Shown here piece by piece: positions 17,977 through 51,600 of a stretch of DNA of 64,000 nt (the stretch's first letter is position 1; every line of letters begins with the position of its first letter). The stretch comes from Phoronis australis (Eukaryota; Animalia; Phoronida): NCBI GenBank assembly GCA_002633005.1, contig NMRA01000049.1:716321-780320 (forward strand). The letters are read 5' to 3'. The notes beneath the pieces are model-generated. The model saw nothing but the letters and a program-made list of their open reading frames with translations, did not search any database and had not been told where the DNA came from. The position numbers were made by a program, and so were the translations under genes.

Positions 17977-20039
17977 CTTAACTTGTCCTCAGTTATGCAA
18001 CAATGTTGATTTCAAGCATCAGTTTTTGAGCGCATGTACGCATATATTTCATTAGGGGCAGAGAATTTGAAAACTATATTGAGATGAAAGAGTTTTTGTT
18101 TCATCTAAGGTTCAAAAATAATGAATCTGGCGATTTTTTCTAGAAATTTTTGCACCATTCAAAGTGAATAACTCTCACTTTAGCATCCCCAAGGGGTACG
18201 ACATGTAGATTCGCCACGATCTGTTTAAAAGGTGATTTACGATTTTCGGGTTCCACGCCTATTAAAATCTGCCAACCTCTTCTCTCATGTTTTCTAACTG
18301 TCAATAATAAGCTACGCTTAACAATAATGTATATCTAATTGTCAAATTTCTACCAGCATGGGGTGAGAATACAACTAACGACGTAATTCGCTAATTGGCT
18401 GGGATGAGGGTGCACCGCGCATTTGCTCGATTTGTGTGCATTCGTTTATTCCTGGGTTGGTTCTCGTTGTGGAATACAGGTCTCAGGCTGAAAGGTTTGT
18501 TTAGTACAAAATAACTAGGTTTAGAACTGTTCGAAAACTTCTTCCGAACACGTTACATCTGTATGTTTGAGATATTTTGCGGTGTAATGACCCCAAACAA
18601 TGTCAAACGTAAAATAATCTGCTCGCGATTCCGCGATTCGGAAGCCGGCGGTGGGTTCTCAGCTGGTAGGCGTTTAGTAAAGCCATCTAGAGGTAGTACA
18701 ATAATTTCGTAACTTTATAATTTTCTTAAAATGTGTCCATATGGTCAAGCACCACCTGACCTCTAATGCAATACCAAAGGTATGTGCCTAGGATAAATAA
18801 TAACAAATATATATATTCTAATACTAGACCAGTGGGAAAATGTAAACTTCCTTACTGTCACTAAAACTTTTCGCAACTCCGGCGTTTTTCAACCGAATTG
18901 CATAAGACTCATATCATTAGAAACCCCTTCATCAGCTCCAGATCATTACCAAAATGCGAAAAATACTGTTTAAAATGGAATCATTTACGTACTAAATGGC
19001 TGATTAAATAGCTAATTAGTGATTTAATAAATTGCAATGCCAATTATTTTAGGGTGCAGTAGTCTTGAAAAGGAACTGAACCAGACCATTATGTAAATGA
19101 CTTGTTAAAACCACGAGCAAAATAGTTTCAATGATTCAAAAGATTTGTACCAGATAGAGAAATGTTTAGAAAATGGGTACCCCTGAGTTGCTGTAATGAA
19201 TTTAGTCATACATCTTTATTTATTAATTGAACCTTTTGTGCTGTTTGATTGAAATCTAATCTTCAGTAAAAGTTCAGGTTGCTGTGACATCTGTAAATAA
19301 GGGCAATGCGGATTGTTGATATGCACCCAGACTGTGCATCGCATATAACGCGGAAACAAAGATGTTTAGTATTTTTTAAACATTAAAGGAAGCAATATTA
19401 GTGAACTTAAAATAACCTGTAGGGGCTGCATAGTAAGTCAGCAATGCTCTCCTAAGTGGGAGCGCACCTAGATCGTTAAAAATTTAAATTGCCTTTAGGG
19501 GATGCAGCGGTTTGAGATAGGGGATAGTTACCGGTTCTGTACCAGTTATCATTGTCGTTCCACGTCATTTCCCGCCAAACTACGATTTCTTGCCTCCCAA
19601 AAGGATGATTACGTTTAGCGACCTCAGACGCCGTTAACAGAATACAAGGCGTAATGTCGAGCAGACGCCCCGGACAAAAACGGTGAGCATTTTTCACTTT
19701 TTGACATCTTGATGTAAATTTTAGCCATCCCAAATGATGTGATCAGACTACAACAAGTACAGCATATGAGTAAACCGATGTCTCACCATCTGGGTAATTG
19801 TTTACAATATGACGACATTGACTTACACATATGATTTTGGTATAGTTTGATTCCATGTATAAGTTATCTTTCCAAAAATACACAGAAATTCTTCTTACCC
19901 CGTCTTTTAATATTTTATCGTGAAATTTCTGCTCGCACTATTTCCTGGTACGCGGTAGTAATACCGCTGCGTTGAATGGAAGGAGTCACCTGGCGGTCAA
20001 AAAATTAACTAATCTACCGACTTAATAGATTGTCGCTTT

Positions 20040-22438
20040 TCATTTTGTATTGACTCAAAGTTTTGTGTTCTCAATGGGCGTCCCGAACAAGATAACTATA
20101 CATTCGTATCTAGAAAGGGTTCTTATGTTGTTGATTACATCCTTACGCAACATGAAAATTTATCTAATTGTCTGAAATTTGAAATTTACACACCCGTAGC
20201 ATTGGTAGACAAATTTGATCTTTTGAGTGAAATTTCTGGCGTTTGCCATATGCCAGATCATTCTTTACTTGCCCTTGATTTTTCCGTACATTATAATGGC
20301 AACCTTTCACAATTAAATGAAGCTTGCATCGATTCCCCAAAGAGGTATAAAGTTCGGTCAATTCCCGTAGACTTTATGAATTTTGAAATTTTTAATACTG
20401 CTATGCGAGAATTAATTAATTCTATTTTGGTCTGCAGAGCAACCCAAGAAAACATTGACTGTATGTACAGTAGGTTTTGTAAGTGTATATTTGATGAGAT
20501 GGACAGAAAATTATTTTGTTCTAACACAAAGAAGGTGAAAAGGAAATTTAAAACAAGCAAACCCTATTGGTGTGTTGAATTGTCCGAGCTTTGGAAAGAT
20601 GTAAGTTTAAAGGAAAAAAAATTGAAATGCAGCGGCTCTCGAGAAGAACGCAGCAAAATGGCTTTCGTCGTGACAGAGCATGTGTTTACCACGTCTTTGT
20701 TTTGACCTCGATTATATTTAATCGCTTGAATAACAAACAATCCACATTTGCTACTTTAATTGATATGCAAAAAGCTTTTGACTGGGTAGATAGAAATAGT
20801 TTACTTTTTAAAATGTTGGATCTTATGATAGTTGGAAAATTTTATGAATCGGTTAAAAATATTTATGCCAAAACTCAATCCTGTGTTAAGATTAATAATA
20901 CCTTTACGGACTGGTTTTATACATCTTGTGGGATCAAACAAGGAGATGTTTTATTACCTACTCTTTTTGAACTATTTATAAATGATTTGGCAAAGGAATT
21001 AAAACAGTCAAATGTAGGAATTCCTATCGGTGCTGATAATGTTTCGTCTTTGTTTTATGCTGATGATATAGTGATACTTGCCTAGAGAGCAGAAAATTTA
21101 CAGGGTTTATTGAATGTAGTTGATAAATGGTGCTCTAAATGGAGGCTAATTGTCAATCAGGAAAAAACTAATATTATTCACTTCATATCAAAGCATGTCT
21201 CTCGTAGTTTATATCCATTTCGATTGGGTCGACTAGACCTAGAATATGTACCCAAATATAAATATTTATGAATAATTTTAAATGAACATTTGAAGTTTTC
21301 TGAAACTGCTAAAACTGTATCCGAATCTGCCGGAAGAGCTTTGGGTGCTTTAATTAATAAATTTAAAAAGAATAAAAATATATGAGGTACAGAACGTTAA
21401 CCACATTATTTAATGCTTGTGTTGTGCCTGTTAGAGATTATTGCGTAGGTGTCTGGGGCGGCTCTAGTCTACAGGATTATTATGTCATTCAGAATAGAGC
21501 CGCGCGATTTTTCTTGGGCGTTCACAAATTCGCTCCTAATCATGCTGTTATGGGTGACATGGGGTGGGAATTCCCCAGTGTTAGGCGGAAAATTGAGCTT
21601 TTGAGAATGTGGAATCGTATTATTAATTTCGAGGATGATAGACTAACATACCGAATGTTTTGGTGGGACTACACTACTAATAATAAGTCTTCTGAAGTTT
21701 TGAGCATTTTTAAAGAATTAGGGATTTCGGATTGTTTTCATAACTTACGTTCAGTTAATCTGTCTCACTGCAAGAATGTTTTGCACGATTTGGCATGTAA
21801 CAGGTGGTTGTTTGAAAGCCGTTCGAAACCAAAGTTAAGAACCTATGTTTTGATGAAGAATGTCTTTGAAGTTGTTCCTTACGTGCTTTTAGACTTAACT
21901 CGGCCTAGTAGGTCAATTCTTGCTCAAATTAGAACCGGAACCCTACAGCTATTGGTTGAGGTTGCGCGTTTTCGTTCTCTAGATTTTGATGACAGAATTT
22001 GCTGTCTTTGTCACACTGGTCTGGTCGAAACTGAACTACATTTTCTGTTTGAGTGTCCGTTTTTATTAGATGCCAGAAAACGTTTTACTGTCAAGTTGAG
22101 ATTAAATATCCACGATTCCGTGCAGAAAGCTGTGAAAGTAAATTAATTACAATCATGCAAAAAGATGTTATTAGAAAAACTTTAGTTTTCATCAAACATA
22201 TTTTTGAAGTAAGGAAATACTATATTTATTTATGATCACTTTATCTCGGCATTCTCTTTCTGGTCCTCTTGCAACGCCTGTACACTTGTCTTTTCTTTTT
22301 TTGTATCATGTATCTAAAGTGACTTATAAGCCCCGTGGAGGGCTGGGTGTTCCTAGTCTTTGTAACGTATTCGTTGTTTAAATTCATTTGAACACATGTC
22401 ACTATAATAAAAAATTACTTACTTACTTACTTACTTAC
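20040..22438 (+). mobile_element. RTE-X-like LINE, degenerate and internally deleted, with 3' tail
   Basis: APE end (LNGR, VVDYIL, DHS); RT motifs QNGFRRDR, IDMQKAFDWVDR, GIKQGD, LFYADDIV; C-terminal CCHC RICCLC..ETELHFLFEC; AATAAA followed by (TTAC)n at ~22414-22438. Confidence 0.88.
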
Positions 22439-32409: not shown

Positions 32410-32500
32410 GCGGTCCCGGTAGCTCAGCGGACTTGAGGGTCTGTACCTTTAGCAGAAGATCCTGGGATGGAGCCCCAGTCAGAACAGAGATCTTTTCAGC
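32410..32500 (+). mobile_element. Possible tRNA-derived SINE head
   Basis: A-box-like TAGCTCAGCGG and a degenerate B-box-like GGATGGAGCCC at tRNA-like spacing. No full cloverleaf. Confidence 0.3.
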
Positions 32501-33022
32501 CTTAACTATAGGTCACGTGATGAGACTAACATACAGGGTGTATGATTCTGACTTAAAACATATCTTGGACATTTCAATTTGTCACTGAGGTAACTGAAAC
32601 ATAATGAGGACGTCATTGGTGACGAACACAAGTGCCTGGCGTATTCCGTGAAAACCTCGATGTAATACATGTACGTCCATCGACACGACTGCGTAATGCA
32701 ATCTTGAGGTCTAAAAGTTTAGGTCATTCGAAAACGAAAGCATTTGCGAATAGACGCAATATCGTCGTTTTAACGAAAATTAGCCAAATGGTGTAATAAC
32801 GTCCCATTAATTGACAAAATGAGTAAGCAGATAGGCTCAAAACATTAAAATAGCTGTGAAAAGATTGAAAATAATACTATTCTTCTGCCATTATACTGCC
32901 AATTATTTTTGGCATAAAATGCGCCAAAATCTGACCAAGTTTGACAAAGTACTGTCGAAGACTGTCCACTTTATCTTGGAAACTACTGTACTCTTTAAAA
33001 TACACTGTATGAAGCGTTGCAT

Positions 33023-36000
33023 ATGGGAACTATCTCTTTAAAAGACGTAATTATTCCAGGTATGAACAGCGATGAAGGTAAGGAGTCTGATCACGGGAGG
33101 GCTTACGATGGTGAAGTCTTCGAAATCAGCCGAGAAGATTGTTCCATGATAGCCGACATTGTGTCACCTTTTGGCTACAGCACAGCAGAAGCATTGGTAT
33201 GTATTGCATATGCAGTACTCATCCGCTACGAAGGTGCAGACAAACCTCCTTCTATTTCATTGGCATTTGGCTCTCCTGGACGAGATCAGAATGATACTGA
33301 CGAATCTTTTAGTTGCGACAAAAAGGCAATCGCCGATGAGGAATATTCAACAGCTCTTTTTCCATGTGATGTCAATAGCTCTATTTCAGACATGCTTTTG
33401 TCCCAGCGTCTCACGTTTGACAAATGGCCTGAAGCGCACTCGAAGTTCAACCGCAGCAGCCCCAGCGCATACATGGCGTTTGACTTTCCACGCGACTTCA
33501 ACCGAAGCAGTCAATCCAACCAGTATGAAGTTAAGCTCAATTTGACCCACCAGTTCAACGGAGGCTACTCCTGCTCAGTACGACAAAGCACAAAGGGCTG
33601 CGGTGACCATGTGACGAGATTTCGAGATCATTTTCTGACACTGCTTTCGCAAGTCCACTGTTCTGAAAATCTTAACCTACTCAGCACACCAATTCAAACG
33701 CAGGAAGAGAAACAATTGATGGCTAAGTATAACGCAACTGACAAGTTCTACGAAAATAGTACATCACTTATTCACGAGCTTTTCGAAGAAAAAGCTAGGC
33801 AACATCCTGACGAAGTCGCTATTTGTTGTGCTGAACAAAGTCTGACTTACAAACAACTAGATGAACAATCGACCAGGCTTAGTCATAAAATACTATGCGC
33901 CATGGGTAATGCGTTTTCAAGTCGTTTAGTTGGTATAAGCGTTGATGCATCAATAGATATGGTGATAGGTTTGTACGCCATCATGAAAGCTGGTTTTGCC
34001 TATGTACCGCTTGATCCAAGCTACCCTGAAGAGCGACTAAGTTACATGATTGAAAACTCCAAAGTAAGTCTTGTAATTGCCAAACAATCAATTGTTGGCC
34101 TACTCAGGAATTGTTGCCAAACGGTGCTTTGCCTTGAGGATGTTTTGGTAGAATCTGCCGAAGAAAGAGTATTTGAAAAACAAATTGTCAATCCCGATGA
34201 CTTGGCTTACGTAATATACACGTCTGGATCCACTGGGAAGCCAAAGGGTGTGATGGTGAGTCACCGAAACGCAGTTAACACTATTCTGGATATCAACGAC
34301 AGGTACTCTGTGGCAGAAAAAGACAAAATACTTTTGGTTGCGTCACTCAGCTTTGATCTATCTGTATATGATATATTTGGTATCCTAGCTGCAGGGGGCA
34401 CACTAGTCATTCCTGTTCCAGAAGTTCGCGGAGTCCCAGACCCCAATTGCTGGTTTGAAACCATGAAGAAGCACAGTGTAACAATCTGGGACTCCGCACC
34501 GGCTGTTCTAAGTATCTTAATGGAATTTATTCTTTCTGAAAATGTTTCACTGCCATTTTCCTTGCGGCTATGCATGCTAAGCGGCGACAGAATACCGCTG
34601 AACCTCCCCACCCAGTTGCAAGATATGGTTCCGGGAATTCAAGTCATGAGCCAGGGAGGTGCAACCGAGGGATCAATATGGTCTATTTATTATCCGATCC
34701 AAAGCGTCGACGATGACTGGACGACCATACCGTATGGCATGCCACTTTCCAATCAAAAATATTACGTTCTAGACGAATTCCTAAATCCAGTACCTACTTT
34801 AGTTATAGGAGAATTGTTCATAGGTGGAACAGGTGTAGCCATGGGATATATAAACAATCCTAAAATTACAGAATACCGATTCTTGCCCAACCCTTTTGTT
34901 GAAGGAGAGCGAATCTATAAAACTGGAGATCTAGGCAGATTACATCCTACAGGTTACATCGAATTCTGTGGGAGAATAGACAACCAAGTTAAAGTACGTG
35001 GTTTTCGTGTTGAGCTGTCTGAAATTGAATCAGCTTTGATTAACCAAGAAGGTGTTGCTGACGCGTTAGTCATGAAGGTCCAGGAAAGGCTTGTCGCTTA
35101 CATCATTTGTGACCAAAATGTTCGTCTTGTCGAAGCCGATCTGCGACAGAAAATTGCTGTTTGTCTTCCGTCATACATGGTCCCTGCATTTTTTGTATTC
35201 ATGCATTCCTTTCCTGTAACTGCTAATGGGAAAGTGGACCGACAGGCACTGTCTGAGGTAAACTTTAGTCAAAAGAAGGACGAGGACACGGACCCTTCTC
35301 TTCCTGAAAAATCCACATTAGCAATCAAACCGTCGTTTACAGATAGGGAATACCTTTTAGCTCAAGTATGGAACGAAACGTTTAATGTTGATTTAGACGA
35401 ACTTTCGCCTTCATCATCTTTCTTTGAGATTGGAGGGGATTCCATCTCTGCTATGACTGTTGTCTCTGCAGTGCGGAAGAAGAATTTTCGGATATCTGTG
35501 CAGCAGGTTTTGGGTCACCCTAGGCTTTGTCAACTTGCTATGGTAGCAAAACCACTTGGGAGTGTTCAAAAGAGCAGGTTCCAGGCGAATGAACCTTTAA
35601 CACCTTATGTTCAACTTACTCCAGCCCAAATTTGGTTTTTTGAACAAGATTTTATAAACCCTCATTTCTGGAATCAGTCGTTTCTTCTTCAACCAAAGAA
35701 AGAAATTAGAGCCTGTCAACTGAAGGTAGCCTTAAATCGTCTGATTTGTCAGCACGAAATGTTAAGATGTACGTACTCTCAAACATCAGATGGTGGTTGG
35801 GTACAGACAATTAACGATATAAAGACCCCGTTCTTTAAAAACAAAACACTAGAGAACTTGGAAATGCTTAACGACGAGTTGGAAAGCTTAAAATCTTCTC
35901 TAAACATACACAAAGGTCCCCTATTGGCAGTTGGGCTGTTTAATGTTGGTGATGTGCAGAAACTTTATGTAACCGTTCACCATCTGGTTGTTGACCTTGT

Positions 36001-39000
36001 TTCATGGCGTATTATCCTCGAAGATCTTGAAAGAATGTATGAAGGACAAGAGACTGAAATGCCGAGTATGTCATTTCAAAAATGGTCATCACAATTAAGG
36101 CAAATAGCCGTGCCCTTAATGCGCGATGAGTGGCCGAAAGAAACCGAAGCCTCACCACTGCCTGTAGATGTGGGAAGTAATCTAATCCCTACGGCTAGCT
36201 CTAGAAAGACAATTGTTACAGTGCTTGATCGCAACGTAACCGCTGGTTTGGTGTCATCTGCAAATACTTCTTTTAAAACCAACACCAATGACTTTTTGAT
36301 CGCATCTCTAATTCTAGCATACAACGAGTCATTTGGGTTGGAGAGTCTTCAAATTGACGTTGAGGCACATGGTCGAGAGCCATGGGATGACTCCGATGAC
36401 ATTTCAAGGACTGTTGGCTGGTTCATGACAATGTTTCCACTGACGCTAGAAATCTGCCAGGGGCCATCAAACGAGAAAACTATGGAAAATACGCTAAAAT
36501 TAGTAAAAGAAAAGATTAGAAATATTCCAAAACATGGAATGCCATTTTGGCTCTTAAAGTTTTTGAAGAATTCAGATGAAACGGAAATTGAAAAGTCAGA
36601 CGTACTTTTTAATTATTATGGCCGACTCGATCAAATTCAAACCAAAAGTACTCTATGGGAATTAGATGATGATTATCCGTGTGGTGAGGATGAGTTTAGC
36701 TCAGATGAAAAGCTGACACACAAGGTTGTCGTTGAATGTAGCCTCAAAGATGAAAAACTCTACATGAAGATGTTTTACTGCACTGATATCCACGAACAAA
36801 AGACCATTGAATCGTGGATGGAGAAATGGAAAGAAAACATAATCAAACTGGTATCGTACTGCGGAAGAGATGACGTCTTTGGCTATACACCATCAGACTT
36901 CCCGTTGCTGAAGCTTTCACAGTTCCATTTAGATGAGCTGCTGTCCACCCGACTTGCACAATTAAACCTAGCGACCGAACAATTATCCGACATGTATCCA
37001 TGTACACCGACGCAAGAGGGTTTTCTGTTTAGACTTTTGCAAGATACCTCCTCTTACGTAGTGCAGAGGTCATGTACCCTCAACGGCTCAGTCGATCAGG
37101 GCAAATTACAAACCTGCGTTTATAAAATAATTTTAAGACATGACATCTTACGAACTCGGTTTATTGCTGACAGATTAAATGGGTGCATGCAGATCGTATG
37201 GAAAACCTTCGAACCCCAATGGACGATTGAAGACTGGTCTGACCTTAAAAGAAGCGAATGTGCTCAAAGAGAGATTGAATATCTACGGCATGATCGACAC
37301 TCGGGGTTCAATTTCACAGAGCCAATGCTAAGGTTTGCACTTTTCAGAACATGCAAAGAGACATACCGTTTCATTATAACTTCTCATCACAGCATAGTGG
37401 ACGGACAAACGTGTTCACTGGTTCTTCAGGAAATATTTATGGCGTACAGTGATGCAGTGCTTCCGGACACACCGGTATTTAAAGAATATGTCAGAGAACT
37501 GATGGACTATAAGTCGTGTAGTTACAAAGCAGAGGGATTTTGGAGAGAAGAACTGAACCAACTACCCGATCGTGGAAACCTTCGTTTCTTGGCCCCAGAG
37601 GTTCCCCAAAAGGGTTATGATGTTATTCACCACTCAGCATTGAACGGAAAGGTTGGTGAAATTCAAAAGTATGCCGAGCGACATGGGATCTCAGTTGCTG
37701 CCATGATCTGTGCATCTTGGGCTTACGTAATCAACAAATATTCGTGTGACCCAAATGACGTCATTTTCGGTTTTGTTGTGTCTGGTCGTGGAACCTCGCA
37801 TATTGAAAACGTTAACAGGTTAGTTGGAGTAACAACAAATACATTGCCCTTCAGAGTAAAGATTCATAACCATCACGTGGCGGAGTGGCTAGACTACGTA
37901 CAGAAAAAGATGGTGGCTATTATTGAACATGAAAAATCATCACTGACAGACATTCAGCAGTGGTGCGCATTGACGCCGGATGACAAACTCTTTGAAACAC
38001 TTGTCTCATTTAATGCCATGAACAGGGAAACGGAGATTTCTCTAAAATCTCATGACATTGAGGTCTGCAATGTCTATGACCATGAATTTACAGAGTACCC
38101 CCTGACTTTAGATATTCTTCAAACAGCTAATGCTATCGAAATTAAAGCTATTTATAACAAAAGTATTATCGACGCGGCAGCAGTTGTCCAAATCCTTAAT
38201 CAGCTAGAAAGAGCCATGTGGTGGATAGCAACTGCGTCAAAGGAAACACGAATAAGCGAGTTTGACATTGTGAGCCCTGAGGAGCATCTGGTGTTAGAAA
38301 ATTTGAATCCAATAGATAACTATAATGCCCAACTCGGGCATTTCAAAGGTGTGCAACACCTATTTGAAAGAATGGTTGAGCTTAATCCAAAAGAGCAGAA
38401 GGCATTAATAATGGACGATGAGTCGCTAACCTATAGAGAACTCAACTCAGCAGCTAATGCTATAGCTATTCATCTCCGATCTCTTGGCCTTTCACGTGGT
38501 GAGAAGGTTGGACTTCTCATTGATCGAGGGATACCCATGGTTGTCGGAATGCTGAGTATCTGGAAGGCTGGAGGCGCCTTTGTTCCTATAGATGCTGCAC
38601 AGCCAATGGATCGTGTGTTGTTTATATTAGAGGACTGTGGATGTCGATTTGTCTTTAACTCCAGTTCCATTGACGCAAAATCGCTACCGCAAAAGCACAC
38701 TTACATTTGTTTAGATAATCACCTTCTTGCTGCGTACAAAAACGAAAATGTGTGTAACCTTGAGTGTGTACATGACGCACGTGACCTTGCATACATGATT
38801 TACACCTCGGGTACAACTGGGCGACCAAAAGGTGCTATGGTTGAACATCGTGGGCTAATCAATTTCTTAATGTATAAGCCTGGAGGTGTTCTCGAAGTGA
38901 CTCCTCAAACAAATGTGATGCAGTACTTTGCTGTCGGATTCGACGGTGCTGTCTTGGAGGTGTGGACAACACTTTGCCATGGTGGATGTCTTTTCATTCC

Positions 39001-42000
39001 TTCTGGTGACTTCACAAAGACTATGAAGATAGTCGACGCTGTTGGAAATACACCTTCTACTCTGGCTATTCTGAACCCTGACGAGTATTCTAACTTAAAA
39101 CTTGTTTTTGCCGGCGGTGAGCCATGTTCCTCCACAATGGTAAACGTATGGGGTAAAAATCGAGTTCTATTAAACGGATATGGACCAACAGAATGTAGCA
39201 TTATGTCCCACAGTGGTCGATTGCAGCCATATAAACGAGTTACAGTTGGAAAGCCTCTACCAAATACCAAAAGTTACATTCTTGACAGTAATCAGCGACC
39301 TGTTCCTCCGAACATGACTGGTGAGCTTTTCATTGGAGGAGTCAATGTTGGAAGAGGTTACCACAATAGACCAGATTTGACAGAGGCTGCTTTCCTTGAA
39401 AATCCCTTCGATGTTGGACGAATTTACAAAACAGGTGATTTGGCAAGATGGTTGGAAAACGGAGAAATTGAAATCATAGGACGAATTGACCATCAAGTCA
39501 AATTACGAGGCAAACGTATCGAACTCGAAGAAGTTAGGAGTGCTATTGAACGTCTTCCGGGTGTCACACAAGCACATGTCCTTGTTCAAGATAAGCAGCA
39601 CATCGTAGCATATGCTCTGACTTCCACTGGAGTCAGCCAAGCCGACCTCCTCTGCTCCTTAAAAAAGAAACTTCCCAACTTCATGGTACCAACAGCAATA
39701 TTTTGCATGAGTAATTTTCCTTTGACAGCAAATAACAAGATTGATCAACGATCACTACCGAGGTTTGAACCCCAAACCACTCATTACATGGGAGCAACCC
39801 CGTCTAATAATCTGGATAAGTTGATTCTTAATTGTTACAGGGATGTCGTTGACCCAGGTTTTAACATGGAAGATGATTTCTTTGAGCTTGGTGGACACTC
39901 CCTTTCAGCAATAAGGTTAAAATCGATGCTTGCAGATAATACAGGCTTAGACGTTTCCATGGTCGATGTAATGAACTTCACCACGCCGTTTGACCTGGCA
40001 GCAGAGTTAAACAACAGAATTTTATTTCCACGAAAGAAAGTACAGTCAGTATCCATCCTACCAAAAACGTGTTCAGTGGAGGGAGACAAGATCATCACAG
40101 CCAAAACGTCCTGTCGGCAAGAGCAAATGTGTTTATTGTATGAACTAATACCGAGTAGTCCAGTGTATAATGTTACTGTAGTTCTTGAATTCCGTGGAAT
40201 CTTGGACGTTGGATTTCTAGAACAATCCATTAAAAGCATAACGACAGTGCATAGTTCGTACAGAACATCTTTTAAGAGGTCAGTTGACAATTCATTTATT
40301 CAAATTGTCACCCCAATTCAAGACTATGAACTGAATTTCAGCTTTTACGATTACGCGGGAGAACAAGGTAGCTGCCAACAAAAGGCACGTGAGCTTTTAT
40401 ACAGAGAAGCCGCAAAACCATTCGATCTTTATTCCGTGCCGTTGGCCAGATTTGTCCTAGTCAAGCTTTCCAACGAAGTTCATCATTTGGGCATATTTAT
40501 GCACCACTCTGTAACTGACGGCGGCTCGCTAAAGATAACCATTGACCACTTAGCAGAATACTATGCTTCCCTAGTGAATAATTGTCAGCCAAACATTCCA
40601 CAGCAGAGATTAAACTACATTGATTACAGCAACTGGGAGAATAAGTTGCTCGAAAGCGGTGAAATTGAAAGACAAATACAGTTTTGGAAAGATAAGTTGG
40701 AAAACGTTCCCAATATATTAGACTTGCCTCTAGACAGAGCACGACCTGCTATTCCAACGTATCAAGGCGAGACTTTGTTCTTTGACATTCCGGACGATGT
40801 CTCAGAAGATTTGCTAAAGTGCTCTCTAGAATGCGGAGGTACACTCTTCACATCGCTTGCAACTGTATACGCATTATTGATTCGTATCTACTGCCAATCT
40901 GATGACGTTGTTGTTGGAGCGTTTTTCTCAGGAAGACACAATCCTGGTGTCGAAAATGTAGTAGGCTACTTTGTGAATACACTTCCTCTTCGAATTCAGT
41001 TTAATCAGCAGGCAACTTTCACATCTTGTTTGACGGATGTAAAGAACTTAATGCTCGAGGTTCTTGATAATCAGGACGTACCTTTTCAGAAAATTCTCGA
41101 GTCCTTGAACGTGCCACGTGACACGTCATATCACCCTATTATTCAAGTTGCTACTGTGCTTCAAGAAGGTATCACAAGCAGACCCTTGGTGGACGGACTT
41201 TCCATGAAAGCACAAGCTTTTGAGCAATTCACAGCAAAATTTGACTTGAATTTAGAATTTGTAAGACATCAAAACGGGAATCTTAGTGGACAGTTTGTTT
41301 TTAACACCGACATTTTCAACCGCTGTACTATACAACGAATGAGTGAACATTTGTTGTATTTGTTTAGTATGTTGACAAAAAGCCGAGACATTCCATTGGC
41401 TAGCCTTGACATGCTACCACCAAGTGAAACTGATCTCATCAGGTCATTCAATACATCTGGGGAATGCTGTAGACTCCACATACACCAACAGTTTGAGAGG
41501 CAAGTGGAATTGGTACCAGACAGCATTGCAGTAGAGCAAATAGATCGACATATAACGTACAGAAGTCTTAACGCCGCTTGCAATAACTTGGCGCGGAAGC
41601 TACGCGCTGCTGGTGTTGTGCCTGACACCGTAGTTGGTCTGATAGGAGAGAGAAATTTGGAGTGCGTTGCTTCCGAGATGGCAATTTTGAAGGCTGGTGG
41701 AGCAATACTATTAATTGAAGCATCAGCTCCTCGAAATCGCATCGACTTGATGTTGGGTGAAACCGATTGTAAAGTGGTTGTAACCACAAAAGGAATAAAA
41801 CTAACTGGACTTCTTGATACATTCCGAGGAGAAATAATCTTGGTTGACGTAGACAAGTATACTACACGTTGTAACGTTGACACCATCGAAGAAAACGACC
41901 ATCAAAATTTGGAAAACGTTGTAAATTCGAGTCACCTGGCATACATAGTCTTCACTTCTGGAACGACTGGTAAACCAAAAGGAGTCATGATTAACCATTG

Positions 42001-45000
42001 GGGATGCCAATGTTTAATTCCTCGGCTATGTGAAGCCTATTCCATTACACATGGCACAAGAATGACGCATTTCTTTAACATAATGTTTGACGGGGCGTAT
42101 CAGGAAGTATTCATGGCTTTGACAAGTGGGGCAACCCTGGTGCAACGAGAAGAAAACTTCTTAAATACTTTAAAAAATGTGGATGTTTCTTTGATGTCCC
42201 CTTCAGTTCTTGCGTCTTTGGACCCTGAAGACTTTCCCAATCTGAAAAAGGTAATTGTAGGTGCCGAAATACTTCCACAGTCTACAGTGGCTAGATGGAA
42301 AGACCACGTGGAGCTTTATAACGAATACGGTCCATCGGAAGTAACTATTATGTGTACCCTTGGGTTAACAAATTTCAACGAAAAGGTGACCATTGGCAAG
42401 CCAATCACTAATTGTACAGTGAATATTTTAGATGGCAATCTAAAGCGTGTTCCCATTGGAGTCAAAGGGACGGTGTACATTGGGGGCAACGGAATTGCAA
42501 GGGGTTATCTCAAACGACCTGACCTAACTAACAAAAAATTCATCAACAACCCTTTCGGCAAAGGAAAACTTTACAATTCTGACGACATAGGTTATTGGAC
42601 TGCAGATGGCCAGATCGTCCTTGCAGGTCGAAGAGATAGACAAATCAAATTACGAGGCTTTCGAATAGAGCTTGATGAGGTTGATCATGCAATGCGAAGT
42701 GAGAAGGGAATTTCAAATTCTGCTTCTGTCGTAAAAAATGACATGCTTGTGGGGTACGTGACGCCTGACATAGGCAATTTGGGAGTACGTGAACTAAAGA
42801 AGAGTCTTCAAGACAAGCTTCCCCACTACATGGTACCGTCAGCGATTGTTGCTCTCTCGAAATTCCCCATGTCAGCGTCGGAGAAAATCGACTACAAACG
42901 TTTGCCTGAACCTTCTTTCATCGAGTCTGAAATACTCACGGCGAAAGAAGGAATTCTCCTTAAAATTTGGAGTGACGTTTTGCAAATTGAGTTATCGAGG
43001 ATTAAGACTAGTGACTCATTCTTTTACTTAGGCGGCGATTCCATTTCGGCAATGAGGGTATTCTCCCTTGGAAGAAAGAGTGGGTTACGCTTTACAGTTC
43101 AACAAGTCTTTCAGTCCAGAAGTCTTTCTCACCTTGCACATGTTGCAAAATATGCTGAGAAAATGAAAGCTGGTAAAAAAGGTGAACAGGTGGAGGTTTC
43201 AGGACATTTGCCATTGACCCCCATTCAAGAATGGTTTTTCGACTTAAACCTTCGCAATCGCAACTGTTTTAATCAATCACTGCTTCTAAAGTCATTGTTA
43301 AAAGTGGACCCAACACACCTTCAGAATGCCATCAATGCACTTGTCAGACATCACGATATTCTGCGCGCTTTCTTCTCGTTTAAACCAGATGGACGTGCAG
43401 CGCAAGAAATCATGTCTGTAAACGATGCACCAATACCGAAATTGATTCTCAAGAGAATTCCTGAAGACAATCTGGAAACTGAGATGACCAGACTTCAAAA
43501 TTCGTTAGATATAACGTCCGGTCCACTCCTCGCTGTTGGTCTGTTTGATATCGAGGGTAATCGACAGTACATATATATCACAATTCATCACTTAGTCGTG
43601 GATCTTGTTTCTTGGCAAATTATCTTAGAAGATCTCGAAACATTATACCGAGGAGATCTTCTCCAGCAGAAAACGTCTTCATTCAAGGAATGGGCAGAGC
43701 TTCTCAAGTCCGACTATTTTTTTTCCTTTGTTCGCGACGACTGGCCAAGTTTAGAACCAAGCAATCCTTTAAAATTGGATTATGTTCCACAGAACATAGA
43801 TAACATCAAAACCGACAGTGTTGAATTCGAACAAACAGAGTTAGACAAAGAAACAACCAGCAAATTACGCAGTCTCAGAGGGACACGTGGACACGACGAT
43901 ACTTCAATTAATGATATTCTTCTGACAGCACTCATGATAGCGTACAATGAATGGACTGGAGAATCAGTGATGTCCATTGAGCAGGAATGGCATGGGAGAG
44001 AGTCTTGGACAGACAGGCTTGATGTGTCTCGTACTGTCGGCTGGTTCACTGCCATGTATCCCGTAACGTTGTCATTGCACAATCACACAAACGGAGTACT
44101 GGATCACCTTGAAGAAACAAAGCGACGAATTCGAAATATTCCTGATCACGGTAGGCTATATGGAGTATTGAAATATCTAAAGAAAGACAATGATCCAAGG
44201 TTTCACCAAAAAGTTGACATTGTATTTAACTACCATGGAAGTTCAACAATGTATTCTAAAGAGAATAGTCTGTGGGAGGTATGCGATATTGGTGCTTACA
44301 CGTTCAAAAATCGTTGTGATTATGAAGAAGTTAGTCACAAGCTCGGAGTTGAATGTTATATTTCTCAAAATTGCCTTCATGCAAATTTTCTGTACAGCAA
44401 AGATCTTCATCGAGCAGAAACCGTTCGGCTAGTTGCGCAATCGTGGAAGAAAGCACTTCAAAATATCGTCAACGCACTTCAGTTGAACTCAAATATTACT
44501 GAAGTACCTTCGGAAAACCGTGGGATCAAATTTAAGACAGTCCAGGATGATTTGAAGAAAGCAAGAATCAGTTTGGATGACGTGGAAGACATTTATGCCT
44601 GTACACCCCTACAAGAGGGGTTGATATTTTCTTTACTCCGAGACAAATCATCTTATTTGGTACAATTATGTTTGACGATAAAAGGAAATCTCGATGTAGA
44701 AAGATTCAAATTGGCATGGAATGATGTGACAAAACGTCATCCCGCTCTTCGAACGAGTTTCGTCATTGATAGTAGAACACATACCTTGATGCAGGTAGTT
44801 AGACGTTATGCCGATCCACCTTGGAAAATCGGGTCGTGGACTGACTCTGCAGAAGCGGAGTCTCGTTTTGTAAACGAAGACAGAGCAAAAGGATTCAACG
44901 CAAATGATTATCTGCTTAGATTTACTTTAATGAAAACATGCCCTTCAAGCTATAAATTTATTTGGACTGTCCACCATTCAGTTGTCGACGGCTGGTCTTC

Positions 45001-46697
45001 CCCACTCGTACTGAGAGACGTCTTTGCGGCTTATCATTCAAACAATCTTTTACCCGCTCCTTCCTTTCGGTTGTTTGTTGAATATTGCCAATCGCGTGAC
45101 ATGTCTGCTGCACAGAGTTTCTGGTCCAAGTATTTGTCCAATCTCGAACCAATGCGAATCATAACTTTGTCCACAATGAAAGAGATTTCTGAATGTGACA
45201 ATCGACACGTGACACGCACATTTTCCACAAGAATGGATGAACTGAAGCAATTCGCCATGAAGAACAATTTAGCAATAACTTCGGTAATGTATGGTGCCTG
45301 GGCGCTAGTTCTGGATAGGTATTGCAGTAGTTATAGGAAGGACGTTGTTGTTGCAGTTGCTATAGCTTCACGAAGTGCCGAAATAGAAGGTATCGAAGAC
45401 ATGGTTGGACTGCTGCTTAACACATTACCACTTCGCATAACTTTCACATCAAATGAAGAAATGTCGCTAGTGGATTGGCTTAAGACCATACAGGATAGTC
45501 AAGCTGCAATAATGGCATATGATTATAGCAGTTTAGCTGACATACGGAAATGGAGCGGTCTTCCAAGAGATCAGTGTTTGCTTGATACCCTGGTCTCATA
45601 CGAGAATTACCCAGCTCTTGATAATGTGAGCAACCAAGAAATAGAATTCTGTGACATTCATGGATATGAAGAGCTTGATTTGCCACTCGGAATCGTTTTC
45701 AGTGACGATGACGAATATTTGACGACTAAAATTATGTACGACGGTAATCACATCAGCAATGAGTTAGCGCTCCAGATATCGGAACATTTGAACAATGCTT
45801 TGAATGAGATACTCTCTTCTGATAACTCACGATCAGTTTCTGATGTCGACATCAGTAAACCATTCGACATTGAACAGACAAGTGTGGCAAGTCGGTTAAT
45901 TGATAATGTGGCATGTTCACTTTATGTTAAGGATCAGTATGGCCGATCCTGTCCTAAAGACGTCATCGGGAAGTTGTTTATACAACACAATGCGACTGAC
46001 GATGAGGTTTACACTGGTGTTCTGGCAACATCACGAATCAATGGCGGCATAGTTGTTCTGGTAGGCAGCGAAGTCGACTCACTACCGGAAGAGCTGGCGG
46101 GGATTGAAGGATTACCAAGCTCTGTTATCTCCAAAAATAATGACGGTGTATTTGTCTTCGCTTCTCAAAAAGATCCCCTCCATTCTTCGCTATTAGAAGA
46201 GATTAAAAGGAAGCTTGAAAAAGTCAATTTACCAATGTTTGTTCTACCAGTTGACTTCGCCGTTGTTACTGGTGATATTCTTAAAGATATGACAGAAGTG
46301 CCCCCAGAAGTCTCACGAGCGGATTCCAAACAGATATGGCAAGGATGTGACTTTTCGGAAACGTTGACAACCAAGGAAATAATGCTTCGGGATATGTGGG
46401 CAAAGGTTCTGAAAATGAACTCAAGCGAGGTCAAACTCGACCATTCCTTCTTCGACCTTGGAGGCACGTCAATCACGGCTATAAGTCTGGTTTCACTTGG
46501 TGAGAAAAGAGGTCTACAGTTTCAATTATCGGACGTAATGCAGCTGCAAACACTTGCAGAAATTGCCTCAGTTGCCGAGTTAAAGGTTGACGAGGGTGAC
46601 CTGTTGGTTTGTTTAAACACTGGCAATGTCGGCGAAGCTCCAGTCGTATACATTCACGCCAGTGACGGTGGTGTATCGTCGTTTTCGTACATCAGTG
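33023..46697 (+). CDS. Multimodular NRPS, exon 1 (C remnant-A1-T1-E1-C-A2-T2-C-A3-T3-E2-C-vestigial A-T4-start of TE)
   Basis: Uninterrupted 4573-codon ORF. A3 motifs YTSGSTGKPKG (~34216), YTSGTTGRPKG (~38801), FTSGTTGKPKG (~41951). Carrier motifs GGDSI (~35432), GGHSL (~39890), GGDSI (~43031), GGTSI (~46460). E motifs HHLVVDLVSW, ExHGRE and SRTVGWF, each twice. C motifs HHSIVDG, HHSVTDG, HHSVVDG. The start is uncertain: first ATG 33023, second ATG 33062 just after a possible acceptor ttattccAG. The exon ends at donor AGTG|GTAAGT. Confidence 0.96.
33760..35250 (+). other. NRPS adenylation domain A1 (Cys-type family)
   Basis: SFDLSVYDIFG, TIWDSAP, LSGDRIP, GGATEGSIWS, YKTGDLGR, NGKVDR. These match the signature of Cys-activating domains from thiazoline-forming NRPSs. 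Confidence 0.85.
35330..36910 (+). other. NRPS T1 plus epimerization domain E1
   Basis: FFEIGGDSI (GGDS type precedes E domains), LTPAQIWF, HHLVVDLVSW, EAHGRE, SRTVGWF, FNYYG, YTPSDFP. Confidence 0.88.
36985..40020 (+). other. NRPS module 2: C (DCL-like), A2, T2
   Basis: MYPCTPTQEG, HHSIVDG, FGFVVSGR; A2 with NGYGPTE and YKTGDLARW; T2 FFELGGHSL. Confidence 0.88.
40100..44490 (+). other. NRPS module 3: C (LCL-like), A3, T3, E2
   Basis: HHSVTDGGS, LDLPLDRARP, VGYFVNTLPLR, QDVPFQ; A3 with NEYGPSE and QIKLRGFRIEL; T3 GGDSI; E2 LTPIQEWF, HHLVVDLVSW, EWHGRE, SRTVGWF. Confidence 0.88.
44580..46590 (+). other. NRPS module 4: C (DCL-like), vestigial A fragment, T4
   Basis: IYACTPLQEG and intact HHSVVDGWS. 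Then only eroded late A motifs (LYVKDQYGRSCPKDVIGKLFI, YTGVLATSRINGG, LPMFVLP) with no A1-A5 core. T4 FFDLGGTSI. Confidence 0.8.
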
Positions 46698-47253
46698 GTA
46701 AGTTCACGTTTGGAAAAATTATATGTGTGGGTTTGTAAAGCCATTGCTGTCGTATTAACTTAGCAGAACTTTGACACAACAAAGTGAGGACAAAATAGCA
46801 CAATTAGTTCTGGTTTCTGCCCAAATCATTATGAAACCCGCGCCTCATCGCCCGTATCACTTTTAGTGGAGTTGTGTTTTTTCATAAACTACATAAATGG
46901 TACAGGATTGGAAACGTGAGGACATTCACATCTTTTATCACCTTTATTGATTAATAGCTAGTTAGCACAGTGAGCCCCCGTCCGGTCGGACGGAACAAAA
47001 GCAACGGCTGCACCGGACCTCTGAAATCAAAATAATATCTCGTCGCCACTCATATTACAGTAGGTGACTTTTTTGGATTATTCGGAAATAAAAATACCGC
47101 ATCACGGCATTGATTATCAAAAAACGGATTTGTTACAGTCGGAGAATTACTATGATTATTATCAATAAGCTTGTTCTTGTTATTATTGTTACTAATATTA
47201 TTCCTTTTTATGTTGTTCTTCTTCTTATTATTATCATCGCTGTTCATTCCTAG
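46698..47253 (+). other. Spliceosomal GT-AG intron (556 bp, phase 1) within the NRPS TE domain
   Basis: GTAAGT donor, pyrimidine-rich tract plus TAG acceptor, and an in-frame stop if unspliced. Splicing restores both frame and a continuous TE fold sequence. Confidence 0.9.
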
Positions 47254-47900
47254 GTCATCTTAAGAAGCACCCTGTGTATGCCTTCCGGTTTCTGGTTGGT
47301 AGCACACCGTTCGAGTCAATTCCTCAACTTGCCTCCCTGTATGTGGAGCGAATGCAACAGTTGGACTTCTTTGACACAGACACAGTCTATACACTGGTTG
47401 GATACTCATCGGGAGCAGCTATCGCCTTTGAAATGGCACTGCTGCTTCAACAGATCAACCGAAGACCGCAAAAGCTTGTTCTTCTAGACGGATGTCCAGA
47501 TTTAAACAGAAACACGTATATGAGAATTATGAAGTGTACGGAAGAACAAATGGCTGGTCATGAGAAATGGCTTCGAGATACGTGGAAACAAAAAGGCCTC
47601 GACGATGATGATGCAAAGGTTGGACTATCGCTCTTCCGAGAAACTGTGAGCGTGTACGCCGCCTACTTCCCTTCGACGATTTATCATGGAGATGTTACAT
47701 TTGCACGTGCCACGGACTTACTAACAGATGGGCCATTAGCGGAAACGCTTGTTGAGATACAAGAGCAAGGGCGCGACTATGGTACTCAACAACTGTGTTC
47801 TAAAACAGTGCGAGTTGTTGACGTTGACGGCGACCATTACACAATGATGAGAGATGAAAAACAGATGATAGCGAAGGCTATTGCCGGAGCATTAGAGTAA
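47254..47900 (+). CDS. NRPS terminal exon: remainder of the type I thioesterase domain
   Basis: Acceptor ttcattccTAG|G at 47251-47253. A phase-1 splice joins HASDGGVSSFSYIS-G-HLKKHPVYAFRF in frame with the 47274 ORF. Contains the nucleophile elbow GYSSG, LVLLDG and the GDHYTM histidine motif; stop TAA ends at 47900. Confidence 0.92.
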
Positions 47901-48325: not shown

Positions 48326-48384
48326 TTATATAGGTAGAGATGAGGAATATATTTAGCTGTATATAAGTTGAGGCATGTATTTGG

Positions 48385-48620
48385 CAATAAGTATACGTGG
48401 TGATGAGCAATATATTTTGCTATATATCAGTAGCGAGCCACATATTTGGCTACTTATACGTAGTAATGAGCCATATATTTGGCTATATGTGTACGTGGTG
48501 ATGAACAATATATTTAGGTATATATCAGTAGCGAGCCACATATTTGGCTACGTATACGTAGTAATGGGACATATATTTGGCTATATGTATACGTGGTGAT
48601 GAACAATGTATTTAGTTATA
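48385..48620. repeat. Minisatellite with 98-bp period built from three ~33-bp related monomers
   Basis: tacgtggtgatga recurs near 48394, 48492 and 48590; catatttggcta-type subunits lie in between. Confidence 0.82.
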
Positions 48621-51600
48621 TACATAAGTGGTTAGGCTATTAGAAAAACAAAGACGTTGTAACACCTGAAGACGACCGGAGAAATGACCGACAGCTTCGC
48701 CAGGCCAATATAGAGGTTGGTGTATGTAGACCAAGAAATTTTAGAAATGGTGTTACTGTATCACCACCTCAAAACGTTTTCAGGAAGTCAAAATTACTTT
48801 GTGCCAACTAGTATTGTTACTGTTCACTTATTGACAAAGATATTTGAAATCAAACGTAGGACGTTTTGGGATTAACTGGTGATGAGTCATATACATGGAT
48901 AAGTACGGATGTGGTGACGATAATATATTAGTGGTAAGGAGTCACAGACAGACAGACAGACACACACACACAAACACACACACACACGCACACACATATA
49001 TAAGTGGTCATGGGTTGCACAGATGCAATAGTGAGTCATATTTGGTGATGAATCGCATATAAGTTGTGGGTACTATAAAGTTAAGAGGCACAGCAATGAA
49101 GTCTTTAGCAAAGGAAGCTCGTTTTGGGCAATGACAAAGCTAATCGACTGAGGTACATGCGGCATATCGTTTAGTTAGTCATTGGTTGTGGAGGAAATAA
49201 ACATATTTGTAGGTGTGGATCAACGGGTTTTATTACAGCCTTTAATTAAAAAAATCGCTATAGCTTTTAATGTATAAGAGCACTCAGTACAAAGTAAAAA
49301 TACAAGATGAACCTACCACCTTGGCAAGTCAGTGAAAATACAGAAAATGAAGGCTAAATGCAACGATTGAGTTGTATAATTATACAGATGGTTACAAAAC
49401 CAACAGCGAAAAACTACATCAGCCCTGAAACGTCATTCATGAAATTTGAGACATCACTTTATCCCACACGCATTCAATAAGTCGAGTGGAATACAACCAT
49501 GTGATACTGCTTTCCATAATGCACTCCTGGGACAACTTTAACAATGCCCTGTGACATGGAAAGTTCAAAAGGTAGGTCAGTGTCGATTCGACATATTCAG
49601 TTCAATCATCAAACTTTCCCAAAATAGTTTAAAGCAATGAAATTGCAGCAGTATAAATAACACTCAGCATGCAGTCAGGTCCCAAACAGAACATTTGGAA
49701 CAAAGCTGTTAATAATATGACACTTCTGGCTCAGTTTTATTTGCTAAATATTATATCGTTTGCAACTTAGGCACCGATTCCTCGAAAGCTACAATGTTAA
49801 ATGTTGTTATTTAATCATTTTCAGGAAATGTCACAAGTTCAATGCACAGTTACCGGTGTTTTCATCTTTGTTATCTCTTTTCAAGTAATAAATGGTGGCA
49901 TTTAAAACTGTTTCTTTTAATAGAAAAGACTTGTAACGTAACGCCCAAGTATATACATGTCGGCCACCTCAACAGTCTGGGTGAATTATTTAAAAACCTG
50001 CCGAAAAAATGAAAGAAAATTAAGAATTCGAAGCGTATGGATAAATACAAAACGTATTTCGACTGGCGTAGATGAAAAATCTCGATCGATAAGCGGAATA
50101 ATGTCTCGTGGGATATTACTTCATGTACGCCACGCTCGGTACGTTTTGTGTGTGCATTCGTATTCGTAACTGTAGTACTTTCTTGTTTTTGATACGGTCC
50201 CCTATTTAGTATTTACATATTCAAGCAGGATAAGCAAAGCACATCGCGAGTAGACACGCAACAAGTCTGTAAATATGTATTAACATGATCTTGACTAAAG
50301 ACACATTTCGAATCACACAGCTTGGGATAGCACGAACATACAGATACATCCGAATTGAGGTACAGAAAAACCCAAACGGCTCAGGGACTTAAGTACACTA
50401 TGCGTGAGTTTAGGCCTATGCTCCTATATCCGAAGTAATGCGTTTTTCCAAAGAAAACATCATATTTGCGTGCTTTACATATAGGCGCATGCGCTTACGC
50501 AGCTGTGAGTCGTTCGTCTATTCACTGTCCATTCTTAGAACCTTTTATTATAATCGTTAGTCCTAATACGCCAACGTCTACCATTTGATAGTGTATAAGT
50601 CACGGTTGACTCGCTTAATTGTCTACAGCATTTCTCCTTGGTTTTGTTCTGGTGTTTTACATATAGGCACGTGCGCCCCATTGCGAGTACAGGCGCAACC
50701 GCATGTATAAGCGTAAGGACCTAGATAATGTAAAAATACATCTTAAAACGTTTCCAAATTCAAAAAAGCCTGCACCAGGGAGAATGCAATCTAAGGACCT
50801 ACGATAGGTGCACGAGATACCCGTTGTCGTTCTTCTGAGAATGCTGTAACACCTGAAGATAGCCGGAGAAATTACCGACCGAAACCTTGTTCCAATGTAA
50901 ATATGACAGAGGATGGTGTAAAGCTCCAAAAACGTTTAGAAATGATAAGATTATACGTGAAACGCTCGGGTAAAATCAAGAAATAAATTTCTAAACTAAT
51001 ATTTAAATTGAGAAAAATTGCGTTATCCATCACAAAATAGTAGACATTGACGAGTATTCCATTAACAGTAACTAGTAAATGAAAAGTACTAAGTTTAGAC
51101 AAAAAGCATAACGGGCTATGAATGGTAGACCTACCCACACAATGCTGTTAATAGTCCTACGGACACATCAATGAAGCTAAAGGAAACAAACGCAAATTCG
51201 GTAACCAGAACGTCCTTCCTAGAATATAAATGCGTGTAGTCAAGGTCCAAGCGCCAGAAATCAAAGCGAGATGCTGTGATGTTCTGTATTATCAGAAACG
51301 GATTTTACTCCAAAGTGACTAGATCGTTGGCCAGTACACAGACAAACTCATACATTGTGTTCGGCTTCAGGCCAAACACACGATGTTCTGGGCGACAGAA
51401 GAAGGTCTTCATTCGCCTCGTTTTCCTGTCTGGTGCCTCCCTGAACAAGAGGTGGTGAGTCAAGTGATCGCTTGGCTCGCATAACGCGAAGTTGTCGTGA
51501 GGACTCGATTGGGACCTCAGGGGTCTCACGCTCCACCGGCTAATTTGAAAAGGCTTTGTCCAGTCACGCGTTGTGGGTCATAAATCGAGATAATGATACC

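Follow-up and report, generated by a model that had tools for sequence, protein, structure and literature searches.

What would a nonribosomal peptide synthetase (NRPS) make if its starter module coupled a cysteine-type adenylation (A) domain to an epimerization (E) domain, with no cyclization (Cy) domain before it, and could such a gene belong to an animal? Both questions are raised by a 64,000-nucleotide stretch of contig NMRA01000049.1 from the Phoronis australis assembly (the whole stretch is here called the window), which carries an NRPS gene on its forward strand. According to our analysis, the NRPS is apparently encoded by the animal and expressed, with two epimerases and fungal kin, and its starter module, as predicted from the sequence, probably loads L-Cys, converts it to D-Cys, and passes it on uncyclized. 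The interest of the gene lies in that apparent animal encoding, the fungal kin, and the two epimerases; the chemistry of the first module is not new. Symbionts are usually held to be the makers of D-amino-acid peptides in marine invertebrates, and an animal making a peptide that starts with D-Cys would be unusual. The product is known for few animal NRPSs (PMC11869996, in excerpt).

A starter module without a cyclization domain

The open reading frame (ORF) of the NRPS occupies 33017-46738 on the plus strand (4,573 codons). The long coding exon 1, 33023..46697, has a first in-frame ATG at 33023 and a second at 33062, and is spanned by contigs of sequencing runs X1 and X2. The type of runs X1 to X4 is only guessed as DNA on record; we take X1 and X2 to be transcript sequence. 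The starter A domain, A1 (33752..35251), belongs to the Cys clade and has the code DLYDMSQIWK. It is followed by a carrier (T) domain, T1 (35357..35551, Pfam), with GGDS in the motif IGGDSI, by an E domain, E1 (35609..36886), whose HHLVVD and EAHGRE motifs are intact, and by a condensation (C) domain of the DCL type, C2 (36989..38287), with the motif HHSIVDG. E1 and C2 were classed with condensation-type profiles of 60 rows each, built from this analysis' own matches and sorted by motif and context. E1 scores 333 bits on the E profile versus 127 on LCL and 34 on DCL, C2 scores 300 bits on DCL versus 220 on LCL, and the five condensation-family domains of the protein class in order as E, DCL, LCL, E, and DCL. 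These scores bear out the succession T(GGDS)-E-DCL that a preliminary description of the locus had placed after A1. By the motifs HHxxxD, ExHGRE, and DCL, the module has the canonical A-T-E initiation layout of GrsA and TycA: a GGDS carrier, an E domain with both motifs, and a DCL domain downstream.

The same description had seen no Cy domain, and this holds. A Cy profile (10 rows, one of them doubtful) gave 45-129 bits on the five condensation-family domains, each under that domain's best class, and no match on the N-terminal 245 aa. Nor is there a Cy-bearing coding exon just upstream of the NRPS, since an in-frame stop stands at 32996 and an X1 contig runs unbroken from 32665 to 34258, across the NRPS start. 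Judged from its sequence, A1-T1-E1 lacks the upstream Cy domain of a thiazoline-forming module and is not one. It is likewise not part of an ACV (Aad-Cys-Val) synthetase: ACV synthetases have a single E domain before the thioesterase (TE), and here the Cys-type A domain comes first, E domains number two, and there is an extra C-T. Cys is the business of module 2 in ACV synthetase (PMC10531068, in excerpt) and of module 1 here.

What precedes A1 is a region of ~245 aa (33023..33751) that is likely a truncated remnant of a starter C domain, not a Cy domain. It has no Pfam match, a weak BLAST match to the C-terminal part of a C domain (E 7e-5), and an Atlas neighbour cluster in which 22% of members have Condensation. 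Truncated-C starters occur in Mortierella NRPSs (10.1101/2020.08.21.262279, in excerpt). The presumed 5' leader (32665-33022) holds six upstream ATGs, and the one at 33009 overlaps the start out of frame.

How unusual is a Cys-type A domain without Cy? We surveyed 379 fetched proteins, a sample biased toward proteins resembling this NRPS, in which 169 A domains have the clade motif and 125 of these a Cys-type code. Upstream of the 125 lie Cy (46), an ordinary C domain (33), or nothing classifiable (46). The statement that the Cys code is normally paired with Cy is therefore too strong, as 33 of the 79 classifiable domains sit behind an ordinary C. An E domain follows 11 of the 125 (nine have C upstream, one has Cy, and one is a starter), so that 10 of the sampled domains combine a Cys code with E and lack Cy. 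The sole starter A-T-E case in the survey is ORX93211.1 (P0006) of the fungus Basidiobolus meristosporus. The starter position before E is thus rare, not unique; a Cys-type A domain with E and without Cy is not unusual in microbes, and the chemistry of the module is already known.

Known systems agree with this picture in part. Module 1 of the thiocoraline NRPS (C-A-P-E) delivers an uncyclized D-Cys (PMC4052310, in excerpt), as predicted here. The NRPSs of depsipeptide histone deacetylase inhibitors (DepD, SpiDE1, BhcD/TdpDE1, and PcdK) likewise turn an uncyclized Cys into D-Cys, and their Cys codes have an acidic residue 278, as does A1. Yet the thiocoraline and depsipeptide modules are bacterial, internal, and placed behind an acylating C domain, whereas the module described here is a starter that would leave a free amine. 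PcdK obtains D-Cys through dual E/C domains (PMC13324335, in excerpt), unlike E1. PchE, BmdB, HMWP2, and EqbE share the clade and contact residues of A1 but have Cy domains, and the epimerase of PchE is a noncanonical insert in the A domain (PMC8807600), in contrast to the canonical E domain found here.

Substrate of the starter domain

With GrsA anchor offsets, the pocket residues of A1 are D447, L448, Y451, D492, M520, S522, Q546, I554, W555, and K739 (nucleotides 34355-35231), the same code that had been read before. Alignment to BmdB (7ly7) and PchE (7emy) keeps the pocket motifs in register, with gaps confined to the loops between them, and confirms the register of the code. PchE itself has the code DLFNLSLIWK and contacts Cys through F741, D742, L743, S813, G814, A841, T842, I846, W847, and K1325 (PMC8807600). 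In the alignment all ten contact residues are identical in A1, and positions 278 and 322 both fall outside the contact set. The code matches DLYNMSLIWK at 8 of 10 positions, and DLYNMSQIWK and that of EqbE at 9 of 10. The closest PDB pocket matches are 6lta (FmoA3), BmdB, and PchE (E 1e-23 or better), and the next non-BmdB entry is far weaker (E 6e-14). In an IQ-TREE phylogeny A1 lies inside a Cys-type clade of 37 rows with support of 100/100; the clade includes non-Cys codes too. The AlphaFold model of A1 (pLDDT 88) has the A-domain fold, and a fold search with it confirmed an A domain without singling out Cys-activating domains. In a diverged copy of the gene, five differences lie over the first pocket motif (34363-34387), all of them synonymous.

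Taken together, we consider Cys the likely substrate of A1 on sequence grounds, Ser, Ala, or an analogue unlikely though worth weighing, and any other substrate very unlikely. An N-terminal D-Cys or analogue, as proposed in the preliminary description, remains the best reading, in part supported and predicted only. The further suggestion made there, that the N-to-D and L-to-Q changes at 278 and 322 shift the specificity, fares less well: both are natural variants outside the PchE contact set and probably do not amount to a new specificity, although changes at 322 elsewhere go with Ser, Ala, Leu, and Val.

Position 278 may instead say something about the fate of the residue. D278 is present in 38 of the 125 Cys-type domains, and among classifiable ones an ordinary C lies upstream of 21 of 26 with D278 versus 12 of 53 with N278 (Fisher p 1.5e-6, without a correction for kinship). 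Published Cys codes with an acidic residue there include DLYDMSMIWK (EqbE), DLFEMSLIWK (DepD and BhcD/TdpDE1), and DFAEMSLIWK (SpiDE1) (PMC12283262, Table S8, in excerpt). From these comparisons D278 looks like a mark of noncyclizing Cys-type modules, not of a new specificity, which would be a usable lead for substrate prediction.

Position 322 is less easily read. A scan for the Q322 motif gave nine genome and five metagenome loci, of which 10 domains lie behind Cy, three behind C, and one on a fragment; five of the Cy modules contain an oxidase (Ox). Those behind Cy must, given that position, accept Cys, Ser, or Thr. One bacterial module (L008) has the identical ten-letter code DLYDMSQIWK, and since its domain is not close kin of A1 in the tree, we read the identity as probable convergence. 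A search of the literature for variant A1 codes as text turned up only the canonical code. As a side observation, a metagenome-assembled genome of Alteromonadaceae (L008:795-7556 and L002:3-7571) has two C-coupled modules with D278 and Q322, one with the code of A1 and the other with an inserted methyltransferase. In Ktedonobacteraceae (L006:1610-8508), a C-A(DLYNISQIWK)-T protein lies beside a TauD dioxygenase and a penicillin amidase. The survey also returned stand-alone A-T-TE proteins of ~900 aa with D278 Cys-type codes, from bacteria and metagenomes (P0141, P0172, P0181, P0201, and P0216).

Several observations weigh against Cys. Q322 occurs in none of the 17 Cys codes of the table cited above, and Cys-like codes changed at 322 are assigned to other substrates: DLYNLSGVWK to Ala, Leu, or Val, DLWNMGEVWK to Ser or Ala, and DLWNIASIWK to Ser (PMC12283262, in excerpt). 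FmoA3, the top PDB match of the pocket, binds alpha-methyl-Ser. The Ser-like, non-Cys code DMYHLGMMDK, or one near it, is found in 32 of the 169 relatives of A1, the ~880-aa half-C-A-T proteins P0131, P0136, P0139, P0153, and 28 more of the Cys-type clade. For EqbE, Cys is only predicted, as "Cys?" (PMC3672683, in excerpt), and the 14 Q322 loci are all without a known substrate. A1 may have changed its substrate to Ser or Ala, or to an analogue of Cys (alpha-methyl-Ser, Dap, or homocysteine), in which case the product would begin with D-Ser, D-Ala, or the like and carry no thiol; Q322 Cy-Ox modules could, for their part, form oxazoles from Ser. The cyclopentapeptides of Basidiobolus are not known to contain Cys. 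The Basidiobolus relative ORX93211.1 has been hypothesized, without confirmation, to make such cyclopentapeptides, yet the gene model is described as tetramodular with methyltransferases, a misfit to the five A domains of P0006 that makes the link unreliable (PMC7466969, in excerpt). Against a shift also stand the fully retained contact set, the 9 of 10 agreement with DLYNMSQIWK and EqbE, and the H278 and D331 of typical Ser domains, neither of which A1 carries. We regard a shifted substrate as the strongest of the alternatives, and an unlikely one.

Origin and expression of the gene

A fungal affinity is evident in most of the protein. We built FastTree phylogenies of the E, DCL, and LCL domains (77-83 rows) and of the A domains (211 rows); the sample holds five fungal proteins and no other animal, and the direction of transfer is not readable from it. 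E1 and the second E domain, E3, belong to a clade of 13 rows (SH 1.0); the remaining 11 rows are all fungal, from Basidiobolus, Tieghemiomyces, Polyrhizophydium, and the chytrid Irineochytrium. C2 and C4 lie in an otherwise fungal DCL clade of 13 rows (SH 1.0), C3 has a C domain of Basidiobolus as its sister (SH 1.0), and A2 and A3 join the same fungi in a 14-row clade (SH 0.95). These trees place the E and C domains, together with A2 and A3, among the NRPSs of chytrids and zoopagomycetes. A1 lies outside the main bacterial D278 group (support 95/94). A sister relationship with the Basidiobolus starter A domain was considered but not adopted, as the trees disagree: it has SH 0.76 in FastTree and is not recovered by IQ-TREE (approximately unbiased [AU] test, p 0.545, not rejected).

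Among 120 long proteins, ORX93211.1 is the best match for A1, E1, C2, A2, C3, A3, E3, and C4. Like the NRPS described here, it has a brief N-terminal stretch followed by an A domain with a Cys code, T(GGDS), E, and C. It differs in being fungal, with five A domains, a predicted D-D-L-D-L pattern, 32-46% identity, and the starter code DLYNFSLIWK, that is, N278 and L322. This kinship with NRPSs of early-diverging fungi bears on whether animal NRPSs stem from bacteria, fungi, or an old opisthokont lineage.

Is the gene the animal's own? A GT-AG intron of 556 nt (46698..47253) lies within the TE; it is absent from X1 and X2 contigs and retained in X3 and X4 contigs. Its removal gives a continuous open frame of ~4,770 aa (14.3 kb) that reaches exon 2 (47254..47900), where the remainder of the TE carries GYSSG and DGDHY (Pfam Thioesterase, E 1.7e-17). 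Three raw RNA reads of run X5 cross the same junction in a diverged copy. Reads of X5 and X6 cover 28 of 30 and 25 of 30 gene bins, respectively, nearly all in sense. A spliceosomal intron that is removed, sense transcripts, and animal-type flanks are thus all present, and we conclude that the window is very probably animal DNA, from a marine invertebrate. The preliminary description did not mention that the gene is eukaryotic and spliced.

That the gene is foreign, from fungal or bacterial DNA caught up in the assembly, or a silent relic could be argued from the fungal nearest relatives and from what was missing nearby: of the 196 stop-to-stop frames of the window, the 140 that were scanned contained no protein-coding gene of the host. 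No close animal homologue appeared among the best 120 and best 150 matches ranked by summed domain scores, a ranking that could hide a three-module animal relative; a further protein search covered 289-923 aa, and a search of representatives gave 20 weak matches, none a close animal one. RNA depth also weighs on this side, at ~0-2 per bin in X5 and X6, with most reads 90-95% alike; no X7 reads fall on the gene and X8 contributes short diverged pieces only, neither of which is evidence of silence. However, the window is rich in animal-type repeats (THAP, LINE remains), X3 and X4 contigs extend from 32536 into the ORF, the intron is spliced, the reads are sense stranded, and the 14.3-kb frame is intact. 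Among the 40 best-supported differences per set, those within the ORF are synonymous in 25 of 36 cases in one set and 14 of 34 in the other. A contaminant or relic is, on balance, highly improbable.

Diverged copies of the gene exist, as is shown by a 545-nt piece with 56 differences in X3/X4 next to a near-identical one; numerous contigs of these two runs are 85-95% identical to the NRPS gene. One such copy has small deletions near E3 (43300-43827) and, at 44251-47115, joints that skip 372 and 2,863 nt, at low depth. These deleted or joined copies are possibly decayed.

A survey of 1,059 animal genomes found NRPSs in over 8% of them, spread across several phyla of invertebrates (PMC10531068, in excerpt). 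Examples such as springtail and Plectus ACV synthetases and nematode, bdelloid, and mollusc (FmtATR) enzymes are microbe-like and some are multicopy (excerpts of PMC10531068, PMC11869996, and PMC11258130). The supplement of PMC10531068 gives, in the portion available, coordinates and contamination checks and no domain layouts, so the present NRPS may be among its entries without a description; that portion does not contain the motif GGATE. The available text of PMC11258130 mentions neither epimerases nor Basidiobolus. Titles and abstract openings yielded no animal NRPS with a Cys-A-T-E start and no link to early-diverging fungi, and the passages retrieved describe no animal NRPS with two E domains.

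Later modules, the predicted peptide, and flanks

Pfam gives the order A-T-[C]-[C]-A-T-[C]-A-T-[C]-[C]-T for the ORF, with the thioesterase in another frame (47274-47897). Read through the intron, the predicted product of ~4,770 aa is A-T-E-C-A-T-C-A-T-E-C-(decayed A)-T-TE. After C2 come A2-T2 (38366..40009; GGHS, Pfam), the LCL-type C3 (40115..41437), A3-T3 (41492..43150; GGDS, Pfam), E3 (43199..44482), and the DCL-type C4 (44582..45859; HHSVVDG), the C and E domains again classed by profile. The hand-read code of A2, DGLGFGGIMK, agrees with the Val/Ile code of LgrA (DGLYIGGIMK) at 8 of 10 positions, with low confidence; MAFFT columns give DGLDFGGIMK. That of A3, DGQLIGEIMK, has a partial likeness to Leu and His codes and becomes DGQSIGEIMK in MAFFT columns, so that for both domains the two readings differ at position 278. 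Between C4 and T4 (46385..46576; Pfam, GGTS with the Ser retained) lie ~160 aa (45860..46336) that are likely what is left of a decayed fourth A domain: they have no Pfam match, rank best of 21 rows (self plus 20 shuffles) on an A profile at E 0.011, and at their end align with the end of A3 and run into T4. The fourth module thus consists of an intact C4 and T4 with that remnant alone between them. Since T4 has no A domain of its own, it would have to be loaded by another A domain or act as a relay. One A domain loading several carriers is known from HMWP2 and EqbE (PMC3672683, in excerpt).

The best reading of the product is D-Cys-L-X-D-Y, possibly plus a fourth residue. A1 would adenylate L-Cys and load it onto T1, where E1 would epimerize it; C2 would couple D-Cys to the L-residue, perhaps Val/Ile-like, that T2 carries; C3 would add a third residue, which E3 would turn to D; and C4 would either couple the tripeptide to a T4 residue loaded by another A domain or merely transfer the tripeptide to T4, before release by the TE. 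In the absence of Cy, D-Cys would keep both its thiol and its amine free. The intact E1 motifs, the GGDS of T1, and the DCL class of C2 are mutually consistent with this scheme. An idle E1, leaving L-Cys in the peptide, might be argued from the mere 35% identity of E1 to its best relative, but with HHxxxD and ExHGRE intact, GGDS in T1, and 300 versus 220 bits for DCL in C2, it is highly improbable. The role of the peptide could be chemical defense or metal or redox handling, which is a guess. Whether any animal-made peptide here has an N-terminal D-Cys we consider evenly balanced.

With its frame intact, its intron spliced, and its first residue strongly predicted, the gene offers a handle on a short thiol-reactive peptide through a single assayable domain. 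By analogy with HMWP2, A1 might also load the A-less T4, within an expanded animal family of NRPSs whose lineage would otherwise be confined to chytrid and zoopagomycete fungi, giving D-Cys-L-X-D-Y-Cys. This is an improbable extension; if true, the animal would make a CXXC-type tetrapeptide that closes by disulfide or binds metal.

Around the gene, the window has few long ORFs and contains microsatellites. Decayed LINE-type (long interspersed nuclear element) reverse-transcriptase elements lie at 1911-2869, 20013-22143, and 59768-62065, and a THAP-domain frame at 6192-6488; for one of the LINE proteins, the nearest Atlas clusters are Eukaryota, most commonly Mollusca. A tRNA-like repeat, likely a SINE (short interspersed nuclear element), lies ~500 nt upstream of the NRPS start (32413-32533) and attracts numerous reads and contigs that belong to other genomic sites. 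Shortly after the gene comes a minisatellite array (48329-48632) whose periods are 33, 63, and 98.

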